From Lingula anatina (Eukaryota; Animalia; Brachiopoda): a stretch of 64,000 bases of DNA. The notes beneath the pieces were generated by a model that was not told where the DNA came from, ran no database searches, and saw only the letters and a program-made list of their open reading frames with translations. The position numbers and the translations under genes were made by a program. Location of the stretch: positions 9,424,001 through 9,488,000 of the forward strand of contig CM120649.1 of the NCBI GenBank assembly GCA_051362555.1. The letters run 5' to 3'. This document shows positions 3,720 through 60,056 of this stretch, one piece after another (the stretch's first letter is position 1; every line of letters begins with the position of its first letter).

Positions 3720-3761
<42 letters not shown>

Positions 3762-9516: not shown

Positions 9517-9590
9517 ATATTATATTATATTATATTATATTATATTATATTATATTATATTATATTATATTATATTATATTATATTATAT
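9517..9590. repeat. (TATAT)n microsatellite
   Basis: Perfect pentanucleotide array ~60 nt upstream of the SMC4 acceptor. Confidence 0.95.
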
Positions 9591-9650
9591 TGTTATGTTT
9601 ACTGATTAAAGAAATTTTACATAATAAAGTGTTGAATGATTTATTTTTAG

Positions 9651-26059: not shown

Positions 26060-28163
26060 CTAGATCTTGTTAACTTTGTGACTATAGATTTCAGGACAAA
26101 TAAGTTATTGTAAGTGCTATGTCCTTCCATGAAACCAGTTTAGTTGGGTTGAGGGACACTCTGTTGTGAGCATATCTTAATTTTTCAGTCTTGAAAGCAG
26201 AATAGAATTATATAGTTTTCCTACACAACTTGATATAGAGATACTAATACGGTAATTGTCTACATTACTGGGATCACCAGATTTATGGATGGGAACAATG
26301 AAACTTGTATTCCATATTTTTGGGTATTGTTTACTCAAAAATACTGCATTGAATAGTTTATGCAGGACTTGTACTACAGTATGATTGCCGTACTCGCTTT
26401 CAACATTTCATTGGTGACTCTATCTTCACACTAAGATTTGCCTGTCCCTAGAGTCTTGATTTGCTTAATTATATAAATATTTCGGCCTGTGTTATTTCAT
26501 GATCTTAACTGTCAAAATTCGCATTTCAGCCTCTTTAACTGGCAACTGAGACTCAAGCATTTGTTTTAAGTTGTCGTCGTATTTGCCTAAATCAGCACTT
26601 CTGCTGAGTTTTTTTAAATGTTCAAAAAAATTTAGCGGATCAACATGCTCTGTAGAATTTGAGTTATTTTTACTAGTGTTTAGATCTTGTACAGTTTGCC
26701 AAAAAGCCTTTGGATCTTTCCCTTCCATATTTTGAAGTTTTTCATGGAGGCCCGCCTTGTATTCATAAGAGGCTTTTTTGTAAGCTCTTTTGTATTTATT
26801 TAGGGATTTATAAAAAGTCCCCACCACAACTGGGTCATTTGGGTATTTACTTCTAGATTTTGCTGAAGTTTTTAGTTCTTGTTTCATTTCTAGCAGAGAT
26901 CTTGTGTACCACACTTTTTATGTACAGACACAGATGTGTCTGTACATATAGCAGGTGACCTGCGTCTGTCGTCGCCGTCGCCGTAGGCCGTCACCGTGCA
27001 CTCAGCGATAACACGATAAGTGGAATACCGTTTTACATTTTATATTCAAATTTACAGAACTGATGAATATTCATAATACGCAGGTCAAGTTCGAAAATCA
27101 GCATGATTGGGCCATTTTTAGGGAAGTTATGCTGTTTTTTTCACTTTTTTTAGCATTATTATAACACCGATAACATGATAAGTGAAAAACCTTTTTACTT
27201 TTTGGCTTGAAACTTATAAAACTGATGAATATTCATAATATGCAGGTCAAGTTCGAAAATCAGAGCTATCGGGTCAATTTTATGGAAGTAATGCTGTTTT
27301 TTCACTTTTTTCAGCATATATGCAACACCGATAACACAATAAGTGGAAAACCGTTTTACCTTTTGGCTTGAAACTTACAGAACTGATGAATATTCATAAT
27401 ACATTCATAATACACATTTTACTTTCATCCTAATCCACTGTTATGCAGAATTCGAATTTGATGTTGGCTATGCAGTTACAGTAAGCATAATACATTAGTG
27501 CATCAGAATTGACAGTATCCTATTTCCTGCGTTTTTATTTTCTGGTTTTTGTCTGTACATTTGACAGCTTTCCTGCCTTGTTTTCTTACTGGTCGTTTCT
27601 TTTTCAATTGCCTAATGCAACATAGTGATTTGTCTGCTGCAGATTTCATTATGGTGTTAAATCTAGTTACTAACTTTTCAGGGTTACTGGTTTCATAAAA
27701 ATTTGAGATCAGTTGTTGGCTTTGTGTACCACACTTTTTTTTCTAACTGGTCGTTTCTTTTTCAATTGCCTAATGCAACATAGTGATTTGTCATAGTGAT
27801 TTGTCTGCTGCAGATTTCATTATGGTGTTAAATCTAGTTACTAACTTTTCAGGGTTACTGGTTTCATAAAATTATGAGATCAGTTGTTGGCTTTCTACGC
27901 TGGAGAGAGCACTTAAAAATTTTTCACCTGAGTCTTTTGACCACCTATATTTTGATGGCACAGGATGTACATTGCTTGCATGTGAATTTTTCTGGGTAAT
28001 ATGACAGGGTAAGATGTATTGAAGTAGGCAATGATCTGAGTAGGAGGTCAGGTCCTCTACTTTAAAGAACAAAGAACAAAATACTTCTAGCGATTTCAGA
28101 GCTACACACCACATAATCTACTGTGCCGCACCCATTAGGCTGATAACTAGTATACCTTCCGAC
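26060..28163 (-). mobile_element. Decayed RTEX-like LINE ORF2 fragment (downstream part), host of the HINE and Gypsy insertions
   Basis: GRYTSYQPNGCGTVDYVVC, SDHCLL, KAFWQTV, WNTSFIVPIHKSGDPSNVDNYR and NNLFVLKSIVTK are collinear with the ORF2 at 34521-38078, with stops and frameshifts. Confidence 0.88.
26917..27582 (+). mobile_element. Short internally deleted HINE copy
   Basis: Intact head and tail, about 2.5 monomers. Empty site visible in the duplicate at 27722-27760. Confidence 0.85.
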
Positions 28164-28277: not shown

Positions 28278-28286
28278 TCTCCCCCC
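28278..28286 (-). promoter_or_regulatory. Polypurine tract (PPT)
   Basis: GGGGGGAGA on the - strand directly abutting the 3' LTR. Confidence 0.85.
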
Positions 28287-28463
28287 AAGTCTTTAGGTTC
28301 ACTGATAACCAAAGTCAGTAGAAAGACTGAAATGTTTCAATGATCCGTGAGAGGGCACTAGTGTATGAAAACAAGTAAACTACAAAGTAACAGTTAAACT
28401 GAATATGCAAACGACAACAGGAACAGCAAACATTGGTGTGCAACTACACAGGAGTTCAAATGT

Positions 28464-31400
28464 TTATGACAGTTCATAGTCTTTTTGCCAAGCTGGGGGT
28501 CGAGTGGCACGAGTGGAGCGTCTAGGTTGTTCCATGGTAAGAGGCTGGGACATTCCAGGTTGACTATCCACTATCCTGGGGCGTGGAGGAGTACAAACAC
28601 GTGTGCTCACACTGACTGGCCTAGGTGGAGATGCATTCCCCAAAGGTAAAAGACGGCGCTTTGGGGTGACGGTCTCTTTGGATGGCGTATCTGTGGCGGG
28701 TGAGGGTGTGTTGAACAGTTGAGGTATGGGTGGTGCAGTCAATGATGGCGGGGTTTCACACTGCGTTTGTGTGTCATGAGAGTGTGGGGTAGCCTTGGCC
28801 TTAGGTGTTGCAGGTAGGCCAGGGATTTCTTCCTTGCGTTCCTCCTGATCAGTGGCAACCTTGGCAGGGAGTGTTGGAGGAGAGCCAGGGATTTCCTTCC
28901 TTGTCTCCTGAGCAGCTGCAAGTTTGGCAAGTGGTGGGGTAACATGCGGAAGCTGAAGATCACGGTCTATGGTCTGGATAGGTGTGGGTTGCAGGACAGG
29001 AGGGTAACGCCGGAGGAATTTCCTGTTCCGTAATGTGACTCGTCCCGAGCCATCTACTCTCACAACATATTGATCGAACTGCCGTACTTCAACCACGGTC
29101 CCAGTCTTGTCCCATTTCAGGGGGTGAGGGCCTGTCTGATTCTGGATTCGGACACGATCCCCTACTGCAAGGGGTGCAAGTCTCTTGGTGTGCTCCGTAA
29201 GGCGTTCTACCATCTTCATATGGCGATTTCTGAGCGCTTCCTCCCTAGCCTTAAGGGTCTCTTGCCAAGTGGTGTGTGGTTTATATCTTCCTGGTGGAAT
29301 GGGGATGAAATCACAGATGGGGTGCCCAAAGACGCACATTGCCGGTGAGAGTTTGGTGTCTCTGTCCGGGGTGTTCCTGTACTGAAGCATAGCACGCTGA
29401 AAGCTGTCCGTGTCCAGGTCACTATTAGGGCTGGTATTGTCTGTGATGAGGCGTTTTACTGTTTTAACCCCAACTTCAGCACGGCAGTTACTATGGGGAA
29501 AGGCTACTGATGACATACGATGATGTACCCCCCAATCAGAAAGAAACTTCTTGGTGGCAGTTGATGTGAACTCCGGTCCCCCATCTGAGGATAGCTCATC
29601 GGCTATGCCAAAGGTGACAAAGGTCCGTCGAAGAGAAGCTATCAGGCCAGCCGCTCCTTGGGATGCTCTCTCCACAATCGGCCAGTTGGAATACCGATCA
29701 ACAATGACAAGATAGGTTATCATAGAGGAGATCCCCTGATGGGCACTGTGCAATGTAGAGAGGACGTCTTGCCTTAATGCAGGTGGGATGACTACACGGT
29801 CTCTATACAACACAACTCCGTCGATTGTGCTGAGGTCCTCCTTGAACTGATAATACTCGCGAAGCTTGAGGGGGAACTCTTGGCGGCTCTCTGGCAGACC
29901 TGAGGTTATTAAGTCTACTAGCATAGCCATATCTGCATCACTTGTGGTTGCTGTGCGTACTCTGTCCCAGGTCACTGATTTCAAGGTGATGGATGCCAGA
30001 GAAGATGTAAGTGCAGAGATCATGTTTTCCTCCATGGGGATGTGATTGGGGGCAGGGGATCGGATTTGAGACAGAGGGTGATGTTGGCTGACAGTAGCAA
30101 CGTCATCAGGGAGTGGGAGCTTATCTGGATCTCCTGTGGGATGACGAGATACGCAATCTTCAGCAAGGTGTTTGACCCCACGTATATGTACCATCTGGAA
30201 ACGGTATCTGAGGGTCTTCTCCTTCAAATTGCTTAGGCCGGGGTTGTTGATATCATCAAGGGACCTGCCGCTAAAGACCTTCAGTAATGGCTTGTGGTCA
30301 ACTGCAATGATGAGGTCATGACATCCAAGGACAAAGTACCTTGTCTTGTTCAGAGCATCAGCAACAGCTAGGGCTTCACCCTCGATGGGGGCATATCGCG
30401 ATTCAGCAGAGTGGGTGAAACGGCTGCCTACAAGAGTAATCTTCCATCCAGATGGGCAGCAGAATGGTCGGATAGGCTGGCAAGAGCAATGCTTCTGTAG
30501 GAGCCAGAACTCAATTCCATTTTTGGACCAGTCAGTTGCAAGGCATGTGGGCCTGGACTTGTCAAATATTCGGACCCCCTCTTCAATTTCCTTGGAGATG
30601 ACAGCCTTGGATTCTTCGAAGAGACTGTTGAGATCCTCGTCCCATCTGAAGGGGGTTCCAGGTTGAAGAAGACATCTAAAGGGAAGCATTTTGTCTGCCA
30701 TGCTGAAGGCATATGATACCTGGTTGACCAAACCAAACCATGATCGCACATCAGTAATGTTTCGAGGGGTGGGAAAGTCCAAGATGGCCTGAAGGTACTT
30801 GGAACTGGGCTTGACACTGTCCAGGGTAATGTCAAATCCTGCAAATTCCACCTCATCTTGTGCGAAGACAAATTTCTCTGGGTTCAGGGTGATGCCATGT
30901 CTACCACAGATGTCTAACCACTCCACGGCTTTGAAGAAATTCCCCTCTATTGAGCTGGACCAAAGTAGGACATCATCGACACATTTGGTTTTGTTGGTGA
31001 TGTGCGAGACAATTTCGTCATATCTCCTGGTGTACCCATCACCTGAAGCAATGTACCCTTGGGGAGCAACCTTGTATCGGTATCTGCCCCAGGGTGTGAT
31101 AAACGTTGTAAGATGGCGATCCTCCTCACGAATGGGTACACTGTGATATCCATTCCAAGCATCCAGAACTGTCTTTTTCTTGCCTTGGGGCACAGCCCTG
31201 GCTTGGTGAAAAGGAGAAGGGGTGTGGTGGGTCTCTCGTGTAGCATGTGCATTCAGAGCCTGTAGATCAACTGTGCGGCGTAGCCTGCCATTGTTCTTCG
31301 CACATACAACCATGCGGTGGCACCAGGTGACTGGCTCACCAATTGGGACTGGTTCGATGACCCCTAGTCTGACATCTTGGTCAAGTCCTGCTTTCACTTC

Positions 31401-33209
31401 TTCCTGCCAGTGAAGTGGGACTGGTATTGGAGTGTGATAGGCTACTGGTGCAGCAGAAGGGTCTACCATCAATTTCATTGGCGGGCTGTCCATAAGGGGC
31501 AAGGGCTGATGATCACATGTATTAAACGTACTGGACCTGTAATAGTCCAGAAGGTATTCCTTCAGTCGCCCACGATTCTGTTCTGTCGCAGGGAAAGGCA
31601 GCTTCGTTGGAGGCGGGGGAGGTGGTTGACATTTGGGGCAAGTGCATGTGTGTTGGGCATCAGCGCCACGTGCTGTAAGGGTAATGTCAGGGAACACGGA
31701 AGCACACTGCGACATGTGATATGCACCCACAGTCGGGAAGGTCTTTGGTATGATGCCAAGTGCAATACATGCCTCCCTGCTGATAAAGAGCTTGTCAGAG
31801 CTGTCGGTGACATAAGTCATCTGTCTTGTTTCCACCAGTTTGCCAGATGGGCCCTTCCCAGCATAGTGAAGTATAGTTTCTCCAAGAATGTTGATGCCAT
31901 TGTTGACAGCAGTGTGCATCTTCATAGTGACTGGGATCAGGTCCTGCCGCTTCAGGCCTAGACGTTGGATTACCTTAATGCCAGCAAGGCAGCTCTGACA
32001 ACCAGTGTCAGCCATTGATGGATGTTCTATTGGTGTGGCTGAGGATAGAAGGCTGAAGCCTAGCTCTCTGTAATCATCTGCACAGACCGTGATTCTGAGG
32101 TTGACGAACGGTTGTGGTTTGGAAGCTCTTCGCACCCACGTGTCATTCAATTGATCATAGATATGATGATCTAAAGCAATGGCCCTGCCTTTTGTATGTT
32201 GTGTTGTGATGGTGACAGAGCAGAGCGATTCAAAGACGGTGCCTTCACAGTCATCTGCCTCATGACAGGAAGTAGTCTTCTGGCTCGGCTTGGGTTTGTC
32301 TTTGCTACGGCACACTATTTCAAGGTGGTGGTATCGTGTGCAGGTCTGGCATTTGTGCCCAAAGGCAGGGCAATCTCTCTTATGAATGCGTAGAGGAGCA
32401 GCCTTGCCATGGCCAGTTTTCCCGCAGTAGCCACAGGGGTCCTGGGGTGGTTTTTCGGCAGGGGTGGGGGTCTCTTTTTTCTTGCGACGGTAAGTGCTAC
32501 CGATGGCCTCAGCTGCTTGGGATTCTTGTAAGCGTGATGCGGAGCGCTTCCCTGCTTCTTTTGCTTCCACAAATTGGAGGACTTCCTCCAATGTCATGTC
32601 CTGGTTCTTATCCCCTAAAAGGTCTATTTGGATCTCAGAGTCTGCTAGTCCACGGGTTAGAACATCACGGGTCATCTCCTCTATGTAGCTTACAGCAGTG
32701 TTGCAACTGGGGCATGAGACAGAAAATTTGCATACTCCTGCCTGGCCTTTTAGACAGGCTCCATAGTTGCGGACAGGTTCATCTCTGTCTTGGCGCATGT
32801 TCTGTAGTGTCACTCTAGCCACCATTGTGTTCTCTGTGCGTACAGCTAATGCTTTGATTGCGGCCATCACCTCATCAACGGATTTGTTTGCAAGGCTTCC
32901 ACCTGCTGTCCTAGTTAGGTCTTTTCGCAAGGGGTCATCACAACATTCCAGCAATTGGATAACCCTGTCTTTGCCAGCTATCTTTGTTGCATCGGCATAT
33001 TCTGTCCATCTGGACTGAAAGTATGACCACTCTTCACTGGTACCGCAGGCTGATATTGTGGGCTGCTTGACTTTCTCCACTTTGGCTGCAGTAACAGGAG
33101 CGTTGGTATGAACAGAGCTGCGTGTGGTGAGTAGGGCTGCTACGATAGTGGCATCAAGGTCATCTGTGGTGTAGTCACAGCCTTCTATTGGGCACTGGAC
33201 CGCCGGCAT
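28464..33209 (-). CDS. Single-ORF Gag-Pol polyprotein (Gag with two CCHC knuckles, protease, RT, RNase H, internally deleted integrase)
   Basis: CGYCGKTGH...[21 protein letters not shown]; ADTGCQS; [20 protein letters not shown]; [19 protein letters not shown]; HSAHQG, SDGGPEF, AEVGVK. Order PR-RT-RH-IN indicates Ty3/Gypsy. Confidence 0.96.
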
Positions 33210-33223
33210 GTTGCCAGGTATGG

Positions 33224-33234
33224 GATAGCGATCA
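33224..33234 (-). promoter_or_regulatory. Primer-binding-site position, complementary to the element's own LTR
   Basis: TGATCGCTATC immediately 3' of the 5' LTR on the - strand; its reverse complement lies at 33290-33300 inside the LTR. Confidence 0.75.
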
Positions 33235-33348
33235 TAAATAAGTACACTGCACTATTTGTCGTTAAGCGTTTATTGGTCCAACTTGACAATGATCGCTATC
33301 TGAAACAGAAGGTAAATTACATAAGTCTACATAAATAATTATCCTATA
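33235..33348 (-). repeat. 5' LTR (114 bp)
   Basis: On the element strand TATAGG...CTTATTTA, containing TATTTAT, TCAGAT (Inr-like) and AATAAA. Confidence 0.95.
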
Positions 33349-33600
33349 CCGACCAGATATCCAATTTTTGTTCCATTTAAAATTCTCACACTGCATAAGT
33401 CCAGGAGTTTCTTACCAAAATTGTTCACCTTGTGAGAGTCCATATTGTTTCTAAAACCTGGTAAATCACAGGAATAAAACCCATTAGCTATGGGTATATG
33501 ATTTACAGAGTCCTCCTGCACAAAGAACTGTTGGCAACTTGAGTTATTTCATCGTGGAGAGAGTCAAACATGTCTACATTGGTGCGTACACAGTAAGTCA
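33349..33600 (-). mobile_element. Upstream (endonuclease) part of the decayed LINE split by the Gypsy element
   Basis: RNNMDSHKVNNFGKKLLDLC...RILNGTKIGYLVG parallels RNSMDSQKSNAFGGKLLELC...RILNGRKLGDLLG in the intact ORF2. Confidence 0.85.
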
Positions 33601-34520
33601 AGGGCAATATAACTTTAACAACATCTAATAGAAAAATGCCTAATCAACCCTTTAAACTCATTCACTAAATCATAACTTTTGCAATGCCATGCCTGTCATT
33701 TAAAAAGATTATTATCAGGATGTATCAAAAACAGTCATGAAATCAAGGGTTGTGGTAAATTAAACATGGCTCCTACTAGTATAATCTTGAGTTTGCTAGT
33801 TAATTTTCACAAAAAGATAAAAACACAGTATATAATGTATTTTTACTATTTTTATGATGATATTCACTAACTTTTTTTTCTTCTATTATATTGAAAGTCA
33901 ATCTTATCTAGTCAAGTTTTTATCTTGCTTATAGTCATATTTTACTTGACCTTGGCTTCATGCTCAATCACACTTTAAGCCTAAGGTTTAACAGTCAACT
34001 GTTAGAGAATGCCCTACTCCACCAACCACAGATTCAACAAGTGTGAATGTCTTTTGTTAGCCTGGCACCTAACATTAAATAAGTTATAATTTATAATTCA
34101 ATTCAATTCAATTTATTTCTGTACTGGTACATAGACTGTCATGACCTTGTACAATATGATATACTAATGACGATACAATACAGTTAGTGCATTACCATCT
34201 TTATATAATGGACATACGTATCAGTAAAATTACTCATAAAATATTCTATCTAAGCAATGCGATAAACCTTGGTGTGATTTTAAATTTACCATAAACATAC
34301 TATAAACATGTTACACAAAAAGAATATGTTTAAACTTAAACCAAGGTTACATAGCTGTTTAAAGCCAGTTTGATGACATGGATAATTACGACTAATGACA
34401 ATTACATAAGACAGATAAGTAAATAAGTTACACAGATATAAATATTGTGCCATGTTCAGTCCCACTGCCGAGTCACTTCTCACAACAGTGGGACCATACA
34501 CTGACATTTTAAGGGATATG

Positions 34521-37500
34521 CTAAGAGTTACCAAGCAGAGCAACTACTTCACTTCTTTTCTTGAATGATTTGATTATAAAGTTGGAGAGGGACACTAGAG
34601 TATCTTTTTTGGCACTGTTAAATACATGGCATAAATGACTGTCTGGTGACCTGGGATCAGCTTTTAGGATTGAGGTTTTACTTAAAAAGGTGACTCTGTC
34701 TGTTTTGTACATTGGGCATTGGAATATAAAATGGTATTCATCTTCAATTACCCCTTGGGTGCACAGGCGACAGATTCTGTCGCACCTTTCAGTTTTTGGC
34801 CTGGTGTGCCGCCCAGTTTCGATGTGGAGTTTATGGTCACTAAGACGTAGTTTAGCAAGGGTTGACAAGGTGTCATAATTTGTTATTTTATCAACATAAG
34901 TTGCCCTTTCACACTTTTGGTTAAGTATACGGAAGAGAGACAATTTACTGTTGGCTTGAAGTTTGCTATTGCACATTTGGGTAAAGTGGTCAGTTTGTCT
35001 TTGTTTGAAAATTGTGGTGAAGTTTTTTGGAGGTGACTGGCTAAGCCACACATCTCCAAGGCCAAATGTGAAAAGGATTTTTCGGATACCCTCAGACCAT
35101 GACATACAAGCTGGCCTGAGTGTGTGGACTGCGGGTGGGACATAAGGTGTCAGCAACTTGTAACTATTTATCTCTTGTATGTATGCTTGTTTCATTAGTG
35201 TAGCATCAGACAATTGAATAATTTTACACCATAGTTGGACAGATGCAAACTGTATTTTGGTATAGAGGGGAAGGCGGCCAAGTTCAGTGTATACACCATT
35301 GTTTGATACATTTTGATGGAGGCCAAGGATTTGTTTGCAAAATTTTAAGTGCAACTTTTCTGTAGGGCAGTTATCCGTTGACACAGAGTAGCCCCATATC
35401 TCTGAGCAATATGTAAGGATTGGGGAAATGAGGGTATCAAATAATTTCTCTTTTAAGGATATGTTAACATTACTCTGAAGTGGAAGAGACTTTGACAGAC
35501 TGAAGAATGCCTTTGTAGCACGTTGTAGGAGATTACTTTGGGTTTCTGTAAAGCTTCCTGATCGATTTAGAAGGAGACCTAGATACATGTATTTGTTGAC
35601 CTCTTGGATTGGTTTTCCATAAAGAAAAAATTTTTCACTGTGAGCTTTTGATTTTGAGTTGAAAATAACTATTTTAGTTTTGGTGACATTTACAGTCATT
35701 CTCCACTTGTTACAGAAATTTTCTACAATTTCCAAACTTTGCCTTAGCCCTTTGGGGGTCTTGGACATAAGGATGAGGTCATCAGCATAGAGTAAACCTT
35801 GTATTGGTATTCCATTTATATCTGGACTTGCAGCACTTTCGCCATCAATTGATCTAAGAAGGTCATCAATAAAAATATTAAAAAGAAATGGGCTCAATGT
35901 GTCACCTTGTTTTACGCCTAGTGTTGTATTAAAGGCCGGGGATATACCACTACTTGTCTTAACACATGCTTGGGAGTTTTCATACATGCTTTTAATGTTT
36001 TTATACATAAGTCCTCTTATTCCTAGAGTACTTAGCTTGAACAGTAGTCCATTCCTCCAAACACTATCGAATGCTTTCGAAAAGTCGATGAAACATGTGT
36101 ATAATTTTTTCTTTCCTTTCATAAATTTTGTAATAATGGACTTAAGTATAAAGATATTATCTGAAGTGCCATGACCATGTTTAAACCCAGTTTGATGAGG
36201 TAGGGGTACCCCTTGTTGTGATGTGTGTGCTTGAATTCTGTTTAACAAGACCTAGTTGTACAGCTTTCCGAGGCAGCTTGTAATAGATATTCCCCTGTAG
36301 TTGTTAACATTTGATTCGTCACCAGATTTGTGAATAGGGACTATATATGCCTTGTTCCATATTGCTGGGTACTTAGCACTTTTGTATATGATATTGAACA
36401 GTTTTACAATTACATCTATAAGATAATCCTTCCCTGATTTTATCATTTCGTTGGTTACCTTGTCTTCCCCTGTTGATTTGCCATTTTTCAATTTTTTGAT
36501 ATTGCTCATGATCTCATCAGCACTAATGTCATGGTCAAGTGCAGTTCTGTCTGGAGAATTCATTTCTCTTTGCCTTAGTTTGTTTTCTATTTTAAGCTTG
36601 AAGTCTTTATCAAAGTTATGTTTACTTGATTCAGTTTCCTCACAAAGACTTTTAAAATACTCATAAAATTCACTTGGTTCAATAAATTCAGTTTGTGTAG
36701 ACTCCATATTTAAATCTTTAACTGCTTTCCAGAAACATTTGGGATTTGCATTTTCCATGGATTGCAACTTTTGAAGTAGGCCTTTTTTATATTCTTTTTT
36801 TGCTTTCTTACATCCTCTCTTATAACGATTGAATGTTTGGTAGTATGATGCATTGACTGAATTGTCAAAGGGTTTCTTGCTCCTAAGTTTTGCTAAGTTT
36901 TTTAAGTGGGACCTCAGAGATTTTAAGTCATTGCTGTACCATGTTGCCCTTTTCTTGTTTTTTCGAGGGTGGACTGAGGTGTATTTTCTTGATTTAAGAG
37001 CCTTTTCAGCTGCAGTTGTGAATATTTCATTTACTAAGGGTAATGCCTCTTCAGGGGAGAGAGCTTGTGACATAAAGTAATCAACTTTTTGTTTTGTTTC
37101 CATATGACCCAGGGCCTCAACAAATTTAATATGAGAATTATTTTCCCAAATGAATTTAGTTGGCTTTGGCATCAGCTGAATTGATTTTGTATGTTTGTTG
37201 TAAGTAGTTTTGCAGTACAGTTCAAATTCAAGTAGGGCATGGTCAGAAAATATTGACAGATCATTGACGTGAAAGTATGGGATGTTGCTGTACAGAGTGG
37301 CACTACAGATGACATAATCAACAATGCTGTTACCAGCTGGTTGATAACAAGTATATTTGCCGAGTAGATCACCTAGTTTTCGACCATTTAAGATTCTTAA
37401 ATTGCAATCTTTGCATAACTCTAGCAGCTTTCCACCAAATGCATTAGATTTTTGGGAGTCCATTGAGTTTCTAGGAGGGGGTGGGTTGTATGCATCACTG

Positions 37501-38051
37501 AGATAATGGGCCCCAGAAATTAAGGTTAAGTCTGTGCTGTCATCTGTGATAAAGTCTGAGTTGACTTTTGTTCTGGCATTGAAATCCCCTTGAATAATTA
37601 TATCACAGTTAGCTGACACTGTTGTAAGTTCAGCTTTAAGTTTATCATATGGGTCTGCATTTGCATTGATCACAGAGTTGAGGGGACTTATGTAGACTGT
37701 GACAAGGATGACATCACGCCTAAACCCAAAGTAGAATTTGCTCAATTTAAGCATCAGAATATCTTCACACTTGCTTTCTAACTTGGTAACTCCAGCACTC
37801 ACTGATTTTCTAACAAATGCTACAATCCCACCTGAGTTTCTCTTGGCTCTCTTTGATTTTTTCCTACAACTACTGTATGATACAAAGCCTGGAATTTCTA
37901 TCTTGCTATCATTATCAGACCAGGTCTCCACTAAAGCTAATATATCAAAACTAGAAATTTTCTTCACTAGTTCAGCATCTTCCAGCTTACAGCCTACTCC
38001 ATGGATGTTCCATGAGCCAACTTTGATGCTATCCGAATGTACTTTTTTCAT
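34521..38051 (-). pseudogene. LINE ORF2 (AP endonuclease, reverse transcriptase, C-terminal CCHC) interrupted by one in-frame TAG at 36252-36254
   Basis: SWNIHG, LVETW, GDFNA, SIVDY, SDH; NYRGISITSCLGKLYN*VLLNRI; QTGF, FIDFSKAFDSV, GVKQGDTLSP, LYADD; CRLC...EDEYHFIFQC. The two ORF-track ORFs share one frame. Confidence 0.93.
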
Positions 38052-38383
38052 TATATAAAGACTGATTTTAATGAACAAGGCAGTGGATCCTTGCTGACAT
38101 CACTTAATTTGGAATTAAACTAAATATTTTTTTTTTAACACTGATAGTAATGGTGCACATATGCATGAATGTAAAGATTACCTACAACAACTTTAACAAT
38201 TTCAGATTTGAACAACTTTTTTACAGTAACAATTGGTTAAAACATTTTGTACTTACTGAGTTGGTTGGACTTCATAAGAGTAAATAATGGCGTGGACATT
38301 TGGAGTACTTATTATGTATACACATTACTTTTCCTTAATACTTTTCAGTTCTTTGTTTCTCAACCTTGTTTACATATGCTCAT

Positions 38384-39136
38384 TTAATCCCAGGAGCGAG
38401 TGTCAAAATGAGTGCCTGAGAAAATTTGCTGTCTGCTATATGGCCAATATCTCTCATCCCTGTCATGTTGTGGCTGCCTGCCATGGATGTATAGCTGTGG
38501 TTCTCTTCTGCGTACGTATCCCCATGAAACATTGGTTTTCCCCCACTTTCTATGTTGATGATGTGACTTTGGGGAGAGTAAGTGTCTAGAGTCTCCATAT
38601 GTCTGACGGCGGTAAGTGTCTTGGGTATGACTAACAGGTTTGACATCTCTGCGGGTCTGAATAATGACGGGGATGTTCTGCCCATTTGCTGTGTTGCAGT
38701 CATTGTCTTCATGGAAAGGTGGAATTCCAGATCTGTGCACACCTAGTGAGTGTTTGGTATGAAGTAGTAGACGAGGGAGTCCATGTCTATCATTTAGGTG
38801 TACATTGTCATGAAACATCCTTTTGTTCACTTTTCCAGAGTTATAACAGACAACTGGGTCATTGTTTTGAAATTTCAGCTTTTGTTTCTCACACACTTTC
38901 TCAATGGACCTGTTGATATTATTTATTTCATAGTAACTCTTGTCTTGCCGTGGAAGAATACTTGACATGATGATTGAAGCCTTTGTAAACTTTTTCTTAG
39001 CTGTAGATGCTAGTTTATCATATGCTATCCCTGGTGTCATTGTGCCATCTGCAAAGTATTTCAGATCATTAGTCCCTGTATGTAGCACAACACTGTCAAA
39101 GTCTGTTTTATCACATTCTTGGATAGCTTTTATCAT
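38384..39136 (-). CDS. LINE ORF1 C-terminal part with SGNH esterase domain (N-terminus missing)
   Basis: VVLHTGTNDL (GxND block) and FHDNVHLN (DxxH block), followed by a Q/R/H-rich tail. No GDS block upstream. Confidence 0.8.
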   Translation of the reverse strand: MIKAIQECDKTDFDSVVLHTGTNDLKYFADGTMTPGIAYDKLASTAKKKFTKASIIMSSILPRQDKSYYEINNINRSIEKVCEKQKLKFQNNDPVVCYNSGKVNKRMFHDNVHLNDRHGLPRLLLHTKHSLGVHRSGIPPFHEDNDCNTANGQNIPVIIQTRRDVKPVSHTQDTYRRQTYGDSRHLLSPKSHHQHRKWGKTNVSWGYVRRREPQLYIHGRQPQHDRDERYWPYSRQQIFSGTHFDTRSWD

Positions 39137-39303
39137 TTCTTCTACCCCACCACGTATATTCTACCCCACCACGTATATAATGTATACTTCCCTTTTAGCC
39201 AACAAAGAAACAAGAATACAGAATGCAATCACTGTTTAGTCTCTTTCTTTTAAAACTATGATCAATTGCTTGCCAAAATGTTTCTTCAAATGCAGTTAAA
39301 TCT

Positions 39304-43099: not shown

Positions 43100-44313
43100 T
43101 TTTATGTACAGACACAGATGTGTCTGTACATATAGCCATCACCTACGTCTGTCATCACCATCGCTGTTGCCGTCGCTGTTGCCGTCGCTGTCGCCGTTGC
43201 CGTGCACTTTTACAGTAAACACGAAAAGTGTAAAACAGTTTTACCTTTTGGCTTGAAACTTACAGAACTGATGAATATTCATAATACGCAGGTCAAGTTA
43301 AAAAATCAGCATGATTGGGCTATTTTTTGGGAAGTTAAGGGTTTTTTTTTTGCTTTTTTCAGCATATATGCAACACCGTAAACACAATAAGTGAAAACCG
43401 TCTTTTTGGCTTGAAACTTACAGAACTGATGAATATTCATAATACACAGGTCAAGTTTGAAAATCAGCATGATTTATAAAAGTTATGCTGTTTTTTCCAT
43501 TTTTTCAGCATTTATGCAACACCGATAACACAATAAGTGGAAACCCATTTTTCTTTTTGGATTGAAACTTACAAATCTGATGAATATCTATAATACGCAG
43601 GTCAAGTTCGAAAATTGGCATGATCGGGCCATTTTTATGGAAGTTATGCTGTTTTTTTTTCACTTTTTTCAGCATGTATGCAACACCTATAACACATTTT
43701 AAGGAAAATTGATTGGCCAATTGTCTTGTAATTCACAGGAGTGATCAGTATAACTAAGATACAGATTCAGTTTTGAAAATAAGTTTGATCAGTTAAGTTT
43801 TGGTTAAGTTATGCCTTTTTTTGTATATAAGTGTTTTTTCTTTAAATTTAATTCTCACCATTCTCATTTTTTAACTAATTTAGATATGTTAAGTTGTTCT
43901 TTTGACATTTTCTGCATCTTAACAATATTGTTAGTTGATTATATGAAAATAACGGTAAACCTATTATTGTGTATTGTGTAATAAAGTGTCAAAAATGGAA
44001 ATAAACTCATATCTTAACAGTTTGTCAGATTCAATTATTCACCATGTTCAGAATCTCTGAATGGAGGAAATTGGACATTTTAAATTGTTCTATTGATATT
44101 TTTCCTATGTCAATAATTTTTCTAGTTGATCATTTAAAAATGAAAGTAAATTGATTATTTTGCTTAATGTAAAAAAGGTGTTGTAAATGGAAATAATCCC
44201 ATTTCTAGCTATCTCTTGTTTACATTTTGGCATTTAGAAAGTGTGACTCTGAACTTCCATGACCTTGAAGACCTCTCCATATCACATTTTCTGAATATCC
44301 ATGATACTTTTAT
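43100..44313 (+). mobile_element. HINE copy (5' part), interrupted by another HINE
   Basis: Canonical head, microsatellite and ~3 monomers; breaks at atgatacttttattttt. Confidence 0.82.
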
Positions 44314-45865
44314 TTTTATGTACAGACACAGATGTGTCTGTACATATAGCCATCACCTGTGTCTGTCGTCGCCCTCGTCGCCATGCACTTTTACTGATAA
44401 CATGATAAGTGGAAAACTTTTTTTTATTTCAGCTTGAAACTTACAGAATTGAAGAATATTCATAATAGGCAGGTCAAGTTAAAAAATCAGCATGATCAGG
44501 TCACTGGTAGGGAAGTTATGCTGTTTTTTCACTTTTTTCAGCATATATGCAGCACCGATAACAGGATAAGTGGAAAACCATTTTACTTTTTGGCTTGAAA
44601 CTTTAAAAAATGATGAATATTCATAATACGCAGGTCAAGTTTGAAAATCAGCATGATCGGGTCATTTTTAGGGAAGTTACGCTGTTTGTTCACTTTTTTC
44701 AGCATATATGCAACACCGATAACACGATAAGTGAAATACCGTTTTACCTTTTGGCTTGAAACTTAAAGAACTGATGAATATTCATATCACACAGGTCAAG
44801 TTCGAAAATCAGAATGATCGGGCCATTTTTAGGGAAGTTATGCTGTTTTTTTCACTTTTTTCAACACATATTTAATACAGATAAAAGGAAAACCTTCAGC
44901 CTTCTGCCTTTCGTCTTGCAACTCACAGGAGTGATCAATCTGACCAGTATACAGATTAAGTTTGAAAATAAGCTTGATCAGTTAAGTTTTGATGAAGTTA
45001 TTAGCCTTTTTTTATATAAGTGGTTTTTCTTCAGATTTAATTCTTAGGCATGTTAACAGTCTCATTATGGAACTAATTAGATATGTAAAAGCGTTGTTTT
45101 GACATTTTCTGCTTCTTAACAATATTGTTAGTTGATTACATAAAAATGACGGTAAACCTATAATCGTGCATTGTGTAATAAAGTATCAAAAATGGAAAGG
45201 AACTCATCATTGCAGTTCATCAGATTCAATCATTCACTATGTTCAGAATCTCCGAATGGAGCAAATTGGACATTTAAAATTGTTCTACTGATATTTTTCC
45301 TATGTCAACAATTTTGCTAGTTGATCATTTAAAAATGACAGTAAATTGATTATTTTGTTTTATGTAAAAAAGGTGTTGAAAATGGAAAGAAAATCATTTC
45401 AGAACAGTTATCTCTTGTTTACATTTTGGCATTTTGAAAGTGTGACTCTGAACTTCCATGGCCTTGGAGAACTTTCCATATTACATTTTCTGAATATCCA
45501 TGATACTTTTATTTTTTTATAAAAAAAATTGATGGTCATTATGCTGTTAAGTATTATGTTATATTGCATGAAAGTTGAAGAAAACCCTATTTTGGACACT
45601 GCTGCTAGGATAGCAATTAAGGGAAAACCATGTTACTTATGATACTCAAACTTACTGAAAAGTTTCATAAGACTGAAGTGCAGCTTGTGTTGGAAAACCA
45701 GTGTGATTGTTTTCTGTTTTGGAAGCAATGCAGTTCTTTAGAGTACTATATGGTGCAATAAATGTATATGGATAAAGGTGCAATAAATGTATATGGATAA
45801 ATGAGATTACACAAAACACTCGTTGAGATTTCCCTGTAAAGTCCCATTGGTTTAGCTCTCTTACC
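44314..45865 (+). mobile_element. HINE copy nested in the previous one, 3' end lost
   Basis: Canonical head inserted in a T run; the body ends at a LINE fragment. Confidence 0.82.
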
Positions 45866-46325: not shown

Positions 46326-48241
46326 GAAACAACAAAGACATTGACAGTGATCAGAATACATACAAACACATTCAATGTCACAACAGACAATGCACAGTGA
46401 TCAGAATGTATACATGAAATTTTGTCTATATAAAGATTTACCCCCCCCCCAACTCTGAAGAGTTAACATTAACCATTGTCACCTTAAAATATATATAACT
46501 TGAGTGGGATCTAATTAAGTGACCCTTTTTCAAAATAATAATTTCTAAAGGTATAACATATAGCGGCAATGGTCACAATGGGATTAAAGAGAATTGCCAG
46601 TGTAGCAATATCATTGTTGTACTGACCTGTGATGAGGCTGCAAGGTTGAGATGAGTTCAGCAGTGCTCAGAGAGATGATAATCCAGGAAACACCTTCATC
46701 TCTACTGAAAACAGATAATAAATCATCAATAAAAGATATATATGTAGACACAGACAGTAGTTATAACACAGAAATAACACCAGTGATCAAAATATATTAT
46801 TATATTATAATAAACACATACAGCAACAATAAAGAAATATATAGACAGTGATGAGAATACATTCAGGCACATTTTATGTCACAACAGACAATGCATAGGT
46901 ATCAGAATGTATACATAAAATTTTGTCCATATGAAGATTTATGCTAAGCAAACCCTCGCCTCTCCAACTCCGAACAGTTCACATTAACCCTTGTCTCCTT
47001 GAAAATATATAAGTGAGTGGGATCTAAGTGAACCTTTTCCAAAATAATAATTTCTCAGGTATAACATATAGGGGCAATGGTCACAATGGGATTGAAGAGA
47101 ATCGCCAGTGTAGCAATATCGTTATTGCACCGACCTGTGGTGATGATGAGAGGTTGAGATGAGTCCAGCTGATCAGAATACATACAGACTCATTCAATGT
47201 CACAACAGACATTGCACAGGCATCAGAATGTATACACAAAATTTTGTCTATATCAAGATTTTTTGCTAAGTGCACAACTGCCTCCCACCCCCACCCAAAT
47301 CTCAATAGTTCACATTAACCCTTTATTGTCACCTTGAGCATATCTAAAACTGAGTACGAATGATATAATGGCACAATATTACAGATATAGAGATTTTTCT
47401 CCTGGTCATGTACGTACGTGTTATATAATACTGTAATATTTTCAAAATACTGGATAAGCTGAACACTTCTTTGTTTTGAGAAAATTGTATTCTAAAGATA
47501 ATACAACTTACAAAATTGGCATAGAATTATTTAGTTTAGTTATTTAAAATCGATTTTGAAGTTGTTTGAGTTTTTTTAATAATAAATTCTCATATATCTC
47601 TCTTACCACACCCTCCCACAAACAAGCTCTCACTAGCTCTCCCCCCCTCTCTCTCTCTATCTTTCTCTCACTCTCTCTCTCTCTCTCTCACACACACACA
47701 TACACTAACTCTCTCTCTCTCTCTTTGTCTGTCTCACACACACACACACATTCATGCTGCCGCCAAGTGGATAAAGCAAGCACTACATTGTAAAATGCAG
47801 CAATGGGAAGAGCATGCCCAAGCAGTAAAGTATCATATCTTGAAATAGAAAATATGTAACAAACCAAAGGAAAATGCACAAATTGATTTCTATAATTCAT
47901 TTAAATAAATTGTACACAAAATAGAATTCAAATGACTGCTCATGAGTGAAAAGTGCACTGTTTAAAATAAACAAGTTGGTAAAATTGACAAAGTCTGCCG
48001 GTGTTTATCTGCTGGTTGATTTTATTTATTTTGCCCTCGGCTGTTGTTTTGAAAATTTATATTAGAAACATTCTATTGAGTTTATGTTTTAAAAAGTAAA
48101 TCCATTGGAATTTCCTTAGAATAATAGGGGTCTTAATTCCTGGGTCAAAATCTGGTTGGGCCATTTTGGCCCACTTGGTCAAAAAAAGTGAGCCATTTTT
48201 AAAAAAATGTGTAACACAGAGATCAAAATATATAATTAAAT

Positions 48242-48417
48242 CAGGCCCGTAGCCAGGGGGGGGGGGGGGGTTCGGGGGTTAGAAAGAACCGCCCCTTTTG
48301 CTGGAAAAAGGTCCTTTCTGGATAAAATTTGATCTAGGTACATGAAGTTTTCATTGGAAAAGGTCCACATTTTTCCGAATAAGAACCCCCCTTTTGAAAT
48401 TGCTGGCTACGGGCCTG
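48242..48417. mobile_element. ~175-bp MITE with poly-G tract (also 51686-51873, 56104-56278, 60661-60834)
   Basis: TIR CAGGCCCGTAGCCAG / CTGGCTACGGGCCTG. Flanks TAAAT/TATAT compared with the empty paralogous site at 46785-46815 suggest a 5-bp TSD. Confidence 0.82.
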
Positions 48418-49364
48418 TATATTATAATAAACACATACAGTGACAATAAAGACATACATGTGGACAGTGATCAGAATACATACATACACATTCAATGTCT
48501 CAACAGACAATGCAAATTAAGGCATCAAGATGTATACATGAAATTTTGTTTATATCAAGGTGTTTGCTAAGTGAACCCTCGCCCCCCAACTCCAAACAGT
48601 TCACATTAACCCTTGTCACCTTGAACACATTAAAACTGATTTGGATTTCAATGACCCATTTCCAAATGATAATATCCCAGTTACAATTTAACATATATAT
48701 AGTGGCGGTGGTCACAATGGGATTGAAGAAAATCACCAGTGCAGCAATATCGTTGTTGCACTGACATGTGCTGAGGCTGCGAGGTTGAGATCATTTCGGC
48801 TATCCTCAGTGTGATGATAATCCAGGAAACACACCTTCAACTCTACTGAAAATAGATGATATATCATCACTTAAACTTTTTATAGACACATACAGTATAG
48901 TTACATCACAGAAATAACACAGTTATCAGGTTATATTATTATATTATAATTAACACATACAGAAACAACAAAGACATTGACAGTGATCAGAATACATACA
49001 AACACATTCAATGTCACAACAGACAATGCACAGTGATCAGAATGTATACATGAAATTTTGTCTATATAAAGATTTATCCCCCCCCCCAACTCCGAAGAGT
49101 TAACATTAACCATTGTCACCTTAAAATATATATAACTTGAGTGGGATCTAATTAAGTGACCCTTTTTCAAAATAATAATTTCTAAAGGTATAACATATAG
49201 CGGCAATGGTCACAATGGGATAAAAGAGAATTGCCAGTGTAGCAATATCATTGTTGTACTGACCTGTGATGAGGCTGCAAGGTTGAGATGAGTTCAGCAG
49301 TGCTCAGAGAGATGATAATCCAGGAAACACCTTCATCTCTACTGAAAACAGATAATAAATCATC

Positions 49365-51239
49365 AACAAGGCAGCAAAGCTGTCAAATGTACAGACAAAG
49401 AACAGAAAATAAAGATGCAAATAAGTGAAAAATTAAATTTTCACAAAAAACTGTTAAATTGCCAGAAAAATTTACCAAACAGACTGCGTTGCCTATTGAA
49501 GCTGTATGTTAGACCCATGTTTCTTTCCTGTAAGTTTGAGAACAGTAAGTGACATGATTTCCCTTAAATGGTCATCATAGGAGCAGTGCCCAAAATAGGG
49601 GTTTCTTCAAATTTTGATGCAACATTACATAATGTTTAACAGCATAATGACAATCAAATGTTATTAATAAAATATAAGTAACATGGACATTCAGAAAATG
49701 TGACAAGCAAAAGTCTTCAAGATCATGGAACTTTAAAGTCACACCTTGAAAATGCCAATATGTGAAAAATTAAATTTTCACAAAAAACTGTTTAACTGCC
49801 AAAATAAATAAATAAATAAATAAAAATACCAAACAGACTGCATTGCCTACTGAAGCTGTATTTTAGTCCCATGTTTCTTTCCTGTAAGTTTGAGAACAGT
49901 AAGTGACATGATTTTCCTTAAATGGTCATCATGGAAGCAGTGCCCAAAATAGGGGTTTCTTCAAATTTTGATGCAATATTACATAATGTTTAACAGCTTA
50001 ATGACCATCAATTTTTAATTATAAAATATTTGTTTCACAGATATTCAGAAAATGTGACTAGCAAAGGTCTTCAGGCCCATGGAACTTCAAAGTCACGCCT
50101 TGAAAATGCCAAAATGTAAACAAGACAGCACTGTTCTGAAATGGGTTTATTTCCATTTTTAACACTTTTTTAACATAAAACAAAATAAACATTTTACTGC
50201 CATTTTATATGACCAACTAAGAAAATTGATGAGATGGGAAAAGTATCAATAGAACAGTGTTAAATGTCCAATTTCCTCCATTCTGAGATTCTGAACATAG
50301 TGGATGATTGAATCTGACAAACTGCAATGATATGAGTTTATTTCCATTTTTGACACTTTATTACACAATACATGATAACAAGTTTACCATGTTTTTTACA
50401 TAATCAACTAACAATGTTGTAAAGATGCAGGAAATATCAAACAAACACTTTTAGGCATCTTATTAGTTAAATAATGAGACTGTTAACATGCCTAATAATT
50501 GAATCTGAGGAAATGTGAAAAACAGTATAACTTCTAAAATAATGGCCTGATTATGCTGATTTTCGAACTCAACCTGCGTTTTAGTAAGATTGACCACTCC
50601 TGTGAGTATGATTACAATTGGCCAATCCGTTTTTCTTATATTGTGTTATCAGTGTTGTATTTATATTGAAAATAGTGAAAAAACAGCATAAATTCCCTAA
50701 AAATGGCCCAATCATGCTGATTTTCGAACTTGACCTGCGTATTATGAATATTCATCAGTTCTGTAAGTTTCAAGTCAAAAGGTAAAATGGTTTTCCACTT
50801 ATCGTGTTATCGGTGCTGCATATATGCTGAAAAAGTGAAAAAACTGCATAAATTCCCTAAAAGTGACCCGATCATGCTGATTTTCGAACTTGACCTGCGT
50901 ATTATGAATATTCATCAGTTCTGTAAGTTTCAAGTCAAAAGGTAAAATGGTTTTCCACTTATCGTGTTATCGGTGCTGCATATATGCTGAAAAAAGTGAA
51001 AAAACAGCATAAATTCCCTAAGAGTGACCCGATCATGCTGATTTTCGAACTTGACCTGCGTATTATGAATATTCATCAGTTCTGCAAGTTTCAAATCAAA
51101 AGGCAAAATGGTTTTCCACTTATCGTGTTATCGGTAAAAGTGCACGGCGACGGCGACGACGGCAACGACGGCGACGACGGCGACGACAGACGCAGATGAT
51201 GGCTATATGTACAGACACATCTGTGTCTGTACATAAAAA
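49365..51239 (-). mobile_element. HINE copy in the array (3 monomers)
   Basis: Near-identical reverse complement of 2497-4195. Confidence 0.9.
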
Positions 51240-52822
51240 TGCAGCAATGGGAAGAGCATGCCCAAGCAGTAAAGTATCATATCTTGAAATAGAAAATATG
51301 TAACAAACCAAAGGAAAATGAACAAATTGATTTCTATAATTCATTTAAATAAATTGTACACAAAATAGAATTCAAATGACTGCTCATGAGTGAAAAGTGC
51401 ACTGTTTAAAATAAACAAGTTGGTAAAATTGACAAAGTCTGCCGGTGTTTATCTGCTGGTTGATTTTATTTATTTTGCCCTCGGCTGTTGTTTTGAAAAT
51501 TTATATTAGAAACATTCTATTGAGTTTATGTTTTAAAAAGTAAATCCATTGGAATTTCCTTAGAATAATAGGGGTCTTAATTCCTGGGTCAAAATCTGGT
51601 TGGGCCATTTTGGCCCACTTGGTCAAAAAAAGTGAGCCATTTTTAAAAAAATGTGTAACACAGAGATCAAAATATATAATTAAATCAGGCCCGTAGCCGG
51701 GGGGGGGGGGGGGGGGGGGGGGGGGTTTCGGGGGTTAGAAAGAACCGCCCCTTTTGCTGGAAAAAGGTCCTTTCTGGATAAAATTTGATCTAGGTACATG
51801 AAGTTTTCATTGGAAAAGGTCCACATTTTTCCGAATAAGAACCCCCCTTTTGAAATTGCTGGCTACGGGCCTGTATATTATAATAAACACATACAGTGAC
51901 AATAAAGACATACATGTGGACAGTGATCAGAATACATACATACACATTCAATGTCTCAACAGACAATGCAAATTAAGGCATCAAGATGTATACATGAAAT
52001 TTTGTTTATATCAAGGTGTTTGCTAAGTGAACCCTTGTCCCCCAACTCCAAACAGTTCACATTAACCCTTGTCACCTTGAACACATTAAAACTGATTTGG
52101 ATTTCAATGACCCATTTCCAAATGATAATATCCCAGTTACAATTTAACATATATATAGTGGCGGTAGTCACAATGGGATTGAAGAAAATCACCAGTGCAG
52201 CAATATCGTTGTTGCACTGACATGTGCTGAGGCTGCGAGGTTGAGATCATTTCGGCTATCCTCAGTGTGATGATAATCCAGGAAACACACCTTCAACTCT
52301 ACTGAAAATAGATGATATATCATCACTTAAACTTTTTATAGACACATACAGTATAGTTACATCACAGAAATAACACAGTTATCAGGTTATATTATTATAT
52401 TATAATTAACACATACAGAAACAACAAAGACATTGACAGTGATCAGAATACATACAAACACATTCAATGTCACAACAGACAATGCACAGTGATCAGAATG
52501 TATACATGAAATTTTGTCTATATAAAGATTTATCCCCCCCCCCCCAACTCCGAAGAGTTAACATTAACCATTGTCACCTTAAAATATATATAACTTGAGT
52601 GGGATCTAATTAAGTGACCCTTTTTCAAAATAATAATTTCTAAAGTTATAACATATAGCGGCAATGGTCACAATGGGATAAAAGAGAATTGCCAGTGTAG
52701 CAATATCATTGTTGTACTGACCTGTGATGAGGCTGCAAGGTTGAGATGAGTTCAGCAGTGCTCAGAGAGATGATAATCCAGGAAACACCTTCATCTCTAC
52801 TGAAAACAGATAATAAATCATC

Positions 52823-54510
52823 AACAAGGCAGCAAAGCTGTCAAATGTACAGACAAAGAACAGAAAATAAAGATGCAAATAAGTGAAAAATTAAATTTTC
52901 ACAAAAAACTGTTAAATTGCCAGAAAAATTTACCAAACAGACTGTGTTGCCTATTGAAGCTGTATGTTAGACCCATGTTTCTTTCCTGTAAGTTTGAGAA
53001 CAGTAAGTGACATGATTTCCCTTAAATGGTCATCATAGGAGCAGTGCCCAAAATAGGGGTTTCTTCAAATTTTGATGCAACATTACATAATGTTTAACAG
53101 CATAATGACATTCAAATGTTATTAATAAAATATAAGTAACATGGACATTCAGAAAATGTGACAAGCAAAAGTCTTCAAGATCATGGAACTTTAAAGTCAC
53201 ACCTTGAAAATGCCAATATGTGAAAAATTAAATTTTCACAAAAAACTGTTTAACTGCCAAAATAAATAAATAAATAAATAAAAATACCAAACAGACTGCA
53301 TTGCCTACTGAAGCTGTATTTTAGTCCCATGTTTCTTTCCTGTAAGTTTGAGAACAGTAAGTGACATGATTTTCCTTAAATGGTCATCATGGAAGCAGTG
53401 CCCAAAATAGGGGTTTCTTCAAATTTTGATGCAATATTACATAATGTTTAACAGCTTAATGACCATCAATTTTTAATTATAAAATATTTGTTTCACAGAT
53501 ATTCAGAAAATGTGACTAGCAAAGGTCTTCAGGCCCATGGAACTTCAAAGTCACGCCTTGAAAATGCCAAAATGTAAACAAGACAGCACTGTTCTGAAAT
53601 GGGTTTATTTCCATTTTTAACACTTTTTTAACATAAAACAAAATAAACATTTTACTGCCATTTTATATGACCAACTAAGAAAATTGATGAGATGGGAAAA
53701 GTATCAATAGAACAGTGTTAAATGTCCAATTTCCTCCATTCTGAGATTCTGAACATAGTGGATGATTGAATCTGACAAACTGCAATGATATGAGTTTATT
53801 TCCATTTTTGACACTTTATTACACAATACATGATAACAAGTTTACCATGTTTTTTACATAATCAACTAACAATGTTGTAAAGATGCAGGAAATATCAAAC
53901 AAACACTTTTAGGCATCTTATTAGTTAAATAATGAGACTGTTAACATGCCTAATAATTGAATCTGAGGAAATGTGAAAAACAGTATAACTTCTAAAATAA
54001 TGGCCTGATTATGCTGATTTTCGAACTCAACCTGCGTTTTAGTAAGATTGACCACTCCTGTGAGTATGATTACAATTGGCCAATCCGTTTTTCTTATATT
54101 GTGTTATCAGTGTTGTATTTATATTGAAAATAGTGAAAAAACAGCATAAATTCCCTAAAAATGGCCCAATCATGCTGATTTTCGAACTTGACCTGCGTAT
54201 TATGAATATTCATCAGTTCTGTAAGTTTCAAGTCAAAAGGTAAAATGGTTTTCCACTTATCGTGTTATCGGTGCTGCATATATGCTGAAAAAAGTGAAAA
54301 AACAGCATAAATTCCCTAAAAGTGACCCGATCATGCTGATTTTCGAACTTGACCTGCGTATTATGAATATTCATCAGTTCTGCAAGTTTCAAGTCAAAAG
54401 GTAAAATGGTTTTCCACTTATCGTGTTATCGGTAAAAGTGCACGGCGACGACGGCGACGACAGACGCAGATGATGGCAATATGTACAGACACATCTGTGT
54501 CTGTACATAA
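52823..54510 (-). mobile_element. HINE copy in the array (2 monomers)
   Basis: aacaaggcagcaaagctg ... tgtgtctgtacataa. Confidence 0.9.

Positions 54511-55444: not shown

Positions 55445-55499
<55 letters not shown>

Positions 55500-60015: not shown

Positions 60016-60056
<41 letters not shown>

Follow-up and report, generated by a model that had tools for sequence, protein, structure and literature searches.

How a Gypsy retrotransposon starts minus-strand synthesis when the bases after its 5′ LTR do not resemble a tRNA-type primer binding site (PBS) is the question raised by an element on the minus strand of Lingula anatina DNA, within the 64,000-nucleotide stretch analysed here (the window). 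A sequence-only reading of the window proposed that the element is primed by a piece of its own RNA and that it does so outside the Tf1/sushi chromovirus lineage. To our knowledge, self-priming has been demonstrated for Tf1 only, and its presence is taken to mark the Tf1/sushi group.

The element spans 5,185 bp and is bounded by two LTRs of 114 bp each, 100% identical by direct-repeat comparison (Table 1), with the 5-bp duplication GTCGG flanking it on either side. The LTR limits are backed by loose ends at 33348, 33235 and 28277 in contigs of DNA run X5, in which the empty-site joint 28160>33352 is also present; the LTR termini are TA...TA, a feature absent from the sequence-only reading. Since the two LTRs are identical, they point to a recent insertion. 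The single ORF encodes Gag, protease (PR), reverse transcriptase (RT), RNase H (RH) with a Cys-rich insert, and integrase (IN), and the LTRs, target-site duplication, polypurine tract (PPT) and PR-RT-RH-IN order are those of Ty3/Gypsy elements. Gag carries an N-terminal zinc-finger-like motif and two Cys-His knuckle-like motifs, and domain searches of the ORF returned neither a chromodomain nor an env, in keeping with the earlier description of a double-knuckle, chromodomain-less element. The window copy is probably not autonomous, because about 60 codons of integrase are missing, a gap that the sequence-only reading likewise did not mention. At the start of Gag, a C-x4-C...H-x3-H motif (window 33209-33100) is conserved in relatives P0003-P0121, its first His being replaced by Arg in the window copy; the PPT and the upstream AAGACTT are nearly invariant across relatives, whereas the PBS varies freely.

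Table 1. Features of the Lingula anatina element, in window coordinates.
Feature	Position	Strand	Basis
5′ LTR, TA...TA ends	33348-33235	-	Direct repeat, 100% identical; loose ends at both limits in DNA contigs
3′ LTR, with second arm copy at 28229-28219	28277-28164	-	Direct repeat
Target-site duplication GTCGG, 5′ side	33349-33353	-	Sequence
Target-site duplication GTCGG, 3′ side	28159-28163	-	Sequence
TATA-like TATTTAT, not kept in relatives	33331-33337	-	Sequence; TATA-like box in 3/29 families
Pyrimidine-rich tract with TTTCAG at its end, resembling an initiator (TCA+1G) or a splice acceptor	33300-33318	-	AG 10-14 nt before arm end in 24/29 families
Predicted self-primer GATAGCGATCA, with the cut expected at 33290/33289	33290-33300	-	Exact PBS complement; covariation in 27/29 families; cut placed by analogy with Tf1
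Predicted helix P2, 5′ strand (TTGTC)	33285-33289	-	TT[G/C] pairs with [C/G]AA in 26/26 motif-bearing families, though the tree needs just 1-2 changes
Likely poly(A) signal AATAAA, in R	33269-33274	-	Sequence; AWTAAA after arm in 17/29 families
Predicted helix P2, 3′ strand (GACAA)	33256-33260	-	Covariation and duplex-energy tests across families
Predicted U5 hairpin P3 adjoining PBS	33241-33253	-	Constrained fold; duplex energy, own versus swapped families (permutation p 0.008)
Non-tRNA-type primer binding site TGATCGCTATC	33224-33234	-	Sequence; LTR complement; Rfam and tRNA-pattern checks
gag-pol, single ORF, start ATG at 33209	28464-33209	-	ORF list; domain search
In-frame gap in integrase, ~60 codons (zinc-binding motif and start of core missing)	29710-29720, near 29715	-	Comparison with relative P0005; loose ends at 29715 in X17 and X5; no PF17921 hit
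Polypurine tract region against 3′ LTR, near-identical in relatives	28278-28293	-	Sequence

The element flanks (33349-33800 and below 28163, minus strand) are presumably a decayed LINE endonuclease fragment, and they are multi-copy, the empty-site joint reaching a depth of 416 in X5. A LINE occupies 34521-39160 on the minus strand, comprising an endonuclease ORF piece (36252-38099) and an RT piece (34521-36251) with one stop between them, and a GDSL-like esterase ORF (38384-39160) lies upstream in the same LINE. Arrays of a ~161-bp repeat are found at 2500-12100, 27000-27400, 43200-45000 and 50500-63700, and a 3.5-4.5-kb unit is present as 4-5 repeats of 99-100% identity from 46,400 to 64,000.

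Directly after the 5′ LTR the element reads TGATCGCTATC (33234-33224), and the exact complement, GATAGCGATCA, lies within the LTR at 33300-33290 (LTR nt 49-59), the duplex reaching 12 bp when the last LTR base is counted; the pairing that the sequence-only reading had described is thus confirmed. That 11-mer occurred by chance in 3 of 200,000 base shuffles of the LTR, and the LTR-PBS fold gave a z of -3.82, with 0 of 200 shuffles matching it. The accompanying landmarks, TCAG (33303-33300), TATTTAT (33337-33331) and AATAAA (33274-33269), were likewise located within the window LTR where that reading had placed them.

Relatives of the polyprotein numbered 346 among 7,992 candidates scored, with an identity of 52-85% among the 120 relatives listed, and the hosts named among them include a sea urchin, a mussel, a shrimp, two gastropods, a clam, a coral and a tubeworm. 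For the comparison of priming regions, the best 80 of 183 confirmed metagenome loci were taken by Gag N-terminal alignment, and LTR ends were anchored with a weight matrix; its training set was six elements with ends known from both LTR copies, and pairing played no part in the anchoring. Among the resulting 81 loci (80 and the window), 62 were anchored and 19 dropped owing to short flanks, weak anchors or broken starts; the anchored loci form 29 families at 80% DNA identity in gag, and priming is covered solely in the part of the clade near the window element. TA...TA ends are given by direct-repeat limits in the window element, the L022 family, L027, L046, L053 and L054. Scans of 10 intact homologues found no chromodomain in any of them, nor do the precomputed domains of the 120 relatives listed (of 346) include one; two viral-contig scans returned no relative, and matches to P0005 in the ESM Atlas were unnamed or CCHC Gag clusters.

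Of the 62 loci, 49 hold in their own LTR an exact complement of at least 9 nt to the post-LTR bases; by family the figure is 27 of 29 (range 9-18 nt), a count that holds for the first or the best family member alike, and with one mismatch allowed 58 of 62 loci reach 10 nt. When LTR and PBS were swapped between families, 4 of 812 pairs were complementary, all four with identical PBS, and the mean run was 12.2 nt against the own LTR versus 2.5 nt across families. The 27 matching families carry 25 different PBS 10-mers, which would require many mirrored changes; all four bases are seen at PBS positions 5, 7, 8 and 10, the first T alone is invariant, and positions 1-4 are biased to TGAT. The families are kin, and their counts are accordingly not counts of independent events. 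The 13 loci without an exact 9-nt match are mutated copies or have misplaced anchors; the two failing families are L007 (misplaced anchor, with an 11-bp repeat present) and L075 (6 nt exact, 10 with a mismatch). Covariation between PBS and LTR, the test that the sequence-only reading had called for, hence lends strong support to its claim of self-priming, although covariation shows that the pairing matters and not that the pairing primes. The first post-LTR base, from which priming has to proceed, is also where the PBS arm begins, which fits a role in priming.

The same reading held that the site after the LTR is not of the TGG type, and this was borne out: a tRNA-type pattern was found at 0 of 62 anchored loci, TGG occurring within 8 nt in three (two mutated copies, and one within the paired arm). 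An Rfam search gave a single chance hit (E 8.5), two tRNA-like ARAGORN hits among the loci are unrelated, and no second conserved primer site was seen within 44 nt.

Within one family in one assembly, the pairing can be observed in successive states: four copies shown keep the old arm and the old PBS, in L023 the arm is new in either LTR and the PBS still old, and in L026 both arm and PBS are new, the series of old, half-changed and new states expected if the primer rewrites the PBS. In L028, of the same family, the change is in the PBS alone. Extra copies of the LTR+PBS junction were also sought in the fetched loci, with none clear except a 4-nt extension in L049. The LTRs of L010, L013, L015, L016 and L027 contain a second copy in PBS orientation inside U3, ~35-45 nt upstream of the arm, which can there pair either way and may form a switch; L019, L025, L040 and L043 form a subclade lacking the YAG described below, with leaders of 170-460 nt and pairing of up to 18 nt.

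The structure around the primer duplex was compared in 29 families (the 27 matching families, with L005 and L007 anchored by hand). TT directly follows the arm on its 3′ side in 29 of 29, and 26 have a [C/G]AA motif 20-27 nt ahead of the LTR end, the third base after the arm being G where the motif has C (19 families) and C where it has G (7 families); this covariation would represent one or two changes on the Gag tree and is suggestive, not strong. Pairing over the next four positions is stronger than when families are swapped (p 0.006), and so is that of the hairpin at the U5 end (p 0.008; 26 families); a leader-LTR helix is unsupported in the same own-versus-swapped comparison of 26 families (p 0.44). 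The pairing region thus appears to fold as a three-way junction, which in the window lies 1.8 kcal/mol above the predicted minimum, and on these fold models the architecture seems to differ from that of Tf1. The predicted cut is the meeting point of the primer helix and P2, and both primer ends share the context A|TA, which would fit unprocessed TA ends.

For the start of the transcript, the sequence-only reading leaned on a TATA box; TATTTAT is indeed present in the window LTR, and with only 3 of 29 families carrying a TATA-like box at the distance expected the argument is weak and a conserved TATA box is ruled out. What recurs is a pyrimidine tract ending in YAG: in 24 of 29 families the AG precedes the arm end by 10-14 nt (binomial 1.9e-10; 5.8e-7 with one 8-family clade collapsed), and the pyrimidine fraction is 0.69 before the AG versus 0.46 further upstream. 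AWTAAA is found after the arm in 17 of 29 families, and U3 is as short as 35 nt. In a clade of eight families, pairing begins exactly at the A of TCAG-T, an initiator-like arrangement resembling the TCAKTY motif (PMC3601003); in five other family representatives it begins right after the AG, as at a splice acceptor, and the 5′ edge of the pairing falls at offsets of -4 to +6 from the YAG. A cap-templated C after the PBS was considered and rejected as unsupported, C being found there in 15 of 29 families, eight of them in one clade.

Seven RNA runs (6-30% of each read, at low depth) consist mostly of reads running through LTR copies, on either strand, and show no start peak of read ends; at that depth none showed a poly(A) site or splice joint, including at 33299-33301; depth steps near 33311 reflect a 1-base insertion in other copies. 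A skip of 190 nt at 31697-31888, in four reads of X20 and with non-canonical ends, is probably a deleted genomic copy. In X21 and X22, from one study, the LTR+PBS is joined to foreign sequence at 33224/33225 (3 reads per class and run). These joints may stem from non-autonomous derivatives or from inserted cDNA that carries a primer copy, and PBS tails are also possible in tRNA-primed elements; as a weak lead, the joints resemble the PBS tail of Tf1, which about half of Tf1 cDNA retains (PMC11042837).

The geometry, the covariation and the absence of a tRNA-type site are established, and it is very probable that the element's own RNA serves in some form as primer, because 27 of 29 families carry the complement of their PBS in their own LTR versus 4 of 812 cross pairs, across 25 different sites and with no tRNA-type site. 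The plain Tf1-like form of such priming, in which the 5′ end of the genomic RNA folds to the PBS and is cut by RNase H, is likely, with the start site, the cut and the cDNA steps modelled on Tf1. The genomic RNA would likely start at or just after the YAG (33301-33299), and the PBS would be bound by the first 11-12 nt of that RNA, with P2 and the U5 hairpin alongside in the three-way junction. The element's RNase H would cut after ...GAUCA (33290/33289), RT would extend from the final A, copying from the last LTR base, and copying of the primer during plus-strand synthesis would overwrite the PBS, a step that would account for the parallel changes of PBS and LTR. Against the plain model stand the 5′ edge of the pairing, which is not fixed relative to the YAG (-4 to +6) where a strict model of the primer as the first nucleotides predicts a fixed edge, and the short U3 (to 35 nt), the TATA-like box in 3 of 29 families and the unsupported leader helix (p 0.44).

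An alternative that retains self-priming would have RNA processing set the 5′ side of the primer, the pyrimidines and YAG acting as a splice acceptor (in cis from a host or internal exon, or in trans), or a 3′ R copy or a second RNA supplying the primer. The position of the AG in 24 of 29 families, the pyrimidine bias (0.69 versus 0.46), the short, TATA-less U3, the halt of pairing right after the AG in five family representatives, and CTAAY in L017, L032 and L048, which we take to be branch-point-like, all suit such an acceptor, and R sequence sits at both RNA ends. Pairing nevertheless crosses the AG in 10 families, G after the AG is rare, and four related families without the YAG still pair; a splice-junction primer built within the LTR was rejected, as no LTR donor completing the PBS was found in the 10 families with a known LTR start and YAG; the post-PBS bases share no exon-end or leader sequence, and RNA, at low depth, has no splice joint or loose end at 33299-33301. 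Processing of this kind is unlikely. Rather unlikely, too, is a fuller scheme, a tRNA-free system of independent origin in which the tiny TATA-less U3 would be a splice acceptor, host splicing would set the 5′ side of the primer and the three-way junction would present the cut to RNase H.

The pairing might also be kept for another purpose (packaging, dimerisation, masking of the 5′ poly(A) signal, or translation control), with a different RNA or a DNA fold-back as primer; covariation by itself is no proof of priming, and AATAAA does sit in the loop. This is improbable, given that the 3′ arm begins at the first post-LTR base, fixing the minus-strand start, that the 44 nt examined hold no other conserved primer site, and that a single host RNA could not match 25 different 10-mers. 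As for a tRNA half or other small host RNA acting as primer, with the LTR match arising by chance, half-tRNA primers do exist in Copia lineages (PMC6317226) and PBS positions 1-4 are biased to TGAT; the PBS is free beyond position 4, however, and the 27 of 29 families versus 4 of 812 cross pairs and the 3 in 200,000 shuffles leave this explanation highly improbable, the covariation having largely refuted it.

The primer of Tf1 is the first 11 nt of its RNA, cut between nt 11 and 12 (PMC7175516), and three duplexes are used, two of them formed by PBS-adjacent sequences (bioRxiv 2022.12.06.519325). As those reports and PMC4600332 describe them, the Tf1/sushi chromoviruses (Tf1, Tf2, Tj1, Tosmo1-3) have in common with the clade studied here the Gypsy domain order, a PBS beside the 5′ LTR, complementary in sequence to an ~11-nt stretch of the own LTR, and extra helices beside the primer duplex; a single ORF is common to Tf1, Tf2 and this clade. 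Here, by contrast, there is no chromodomain, the LTR ends are TA...TA and not TG...CA, the hosts are invertebrates, and the primer duplex of 9-18 nt is followed immediately by a second helix with no leader helix, a three-way junction in place of the Tf1 'pretzel'. RT-RNase H similarity to Ty3 is 100 bits, versus 180-330 bits for unnamed animal Gypsy neighbours, the scores coming from different programs. Pairing of the PBS with the own LTR and lack of a tRNA site are thus shared with the Tf1/sushi group, and the chromodomain, the TG...CA ends and the three-duplex pretzel are not; the clade would work like Tf1 while probably not being a Tf1/sushi member, and the claim that it lies outside that lineage is supported by the absent chromodomain, the TA...TA ends and the leader-helix result (p 0.44).

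Two Gag knuckles, no chromodomain and no env are features of the Mag lineage. These and a wide invertebrate range are common to this clade and Mag (the A, B and C clades, SURL, MolGy3 and MolGy11), and the integrase C-terminal W..G.V...Y.V...RNR and the RT motifs of the nearest outside hits are presumably Mag-like. TA ends, a CVDD RT motif, the Cys-rich RNase H insert and the lack of a tRNA site are points of difference in this clade. RT-RNase H searches fall into tiers, the group with the Cys-rich insert extending to ~43% identity, a sister group at 36-40%, and then hits near 30% whose motifs we take to be SURL-like; names of the nearest outside proteins are uninformative. In an RT-RNase H tree of the 75 of 154 proteins that were long enough, a 61-tip group sits on a long branch with no named element inside, its support not being reliably readable after re-rooting. 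LTRs of Mag A and Mag C end in TG..CA (TGT...ACA; PMC3601003, Table 3) in place of the TA ends found here. The clade may be one of the 16 MolGy clades of a mollusc survey (PMC6238403), the main text of which makes no mention of a PBS; a motif search in its supplements (five files) and those of PMC8556966 (11 of 14 files) gave no match and no clade name.

Elsewhere among LTR elements, TA...TA ends and predicted priming without tRNA have appeared in other settings. The Copia element AtRE1 may itself self-prime. It has TA...TA ends (bioRxiv 137141), and self-priming has been predicted for the plant Copia TAR lineage (Houba, Osr-1), outside the chromoviruses (PMC6317226); TAR and AtRE1 share these respective features with the present clade and differ in superfamily and hosts. 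LTR-type elements without a canonical PBS, bivalve ones among them, are represented by biv-TRIM and fungal GalEa with their conserved hairpin site (PMC6934838), whose inverted repeats, as that report presents them, are internal and not LTR-to-PBS, with no mechanism put forward. A tubeworm survey lists TATA among rare end motifs and gives no analysis of priming.

Across the accessible text of the literature searched, which excluded Repbase, GyDB and subscription journals, self-priming was nowhere reported for an invertebrate Gypsy clade that lacks a chromodomain, and the likely self-priming of this clade is probably undescribed in print. An independent origin of self-priming in the clade is plausible, and it would not be unprecedented, because self-priming is predicted in plant Copia TAR elements (PMC6317226). 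With an LTR of 114 bp and many natural compensatory variants, the cut is directly testable in vitro. Such elements would tend to be overlooked by annotation that demands TG..CA termini or a tRNA site. If true, the finding would carry self-priming across the invertebrates, into a large clade without chromodomains that is hosted by sea urchins, molluscs, crustaceans, annelids and corals and has an RNA architecture of a different kind. The order in which tRNA priming and hairpin priming arose, a question raised in PMC3601003, is touched by it as well, and elements primed in this manner would escape control by tRNA fragments.
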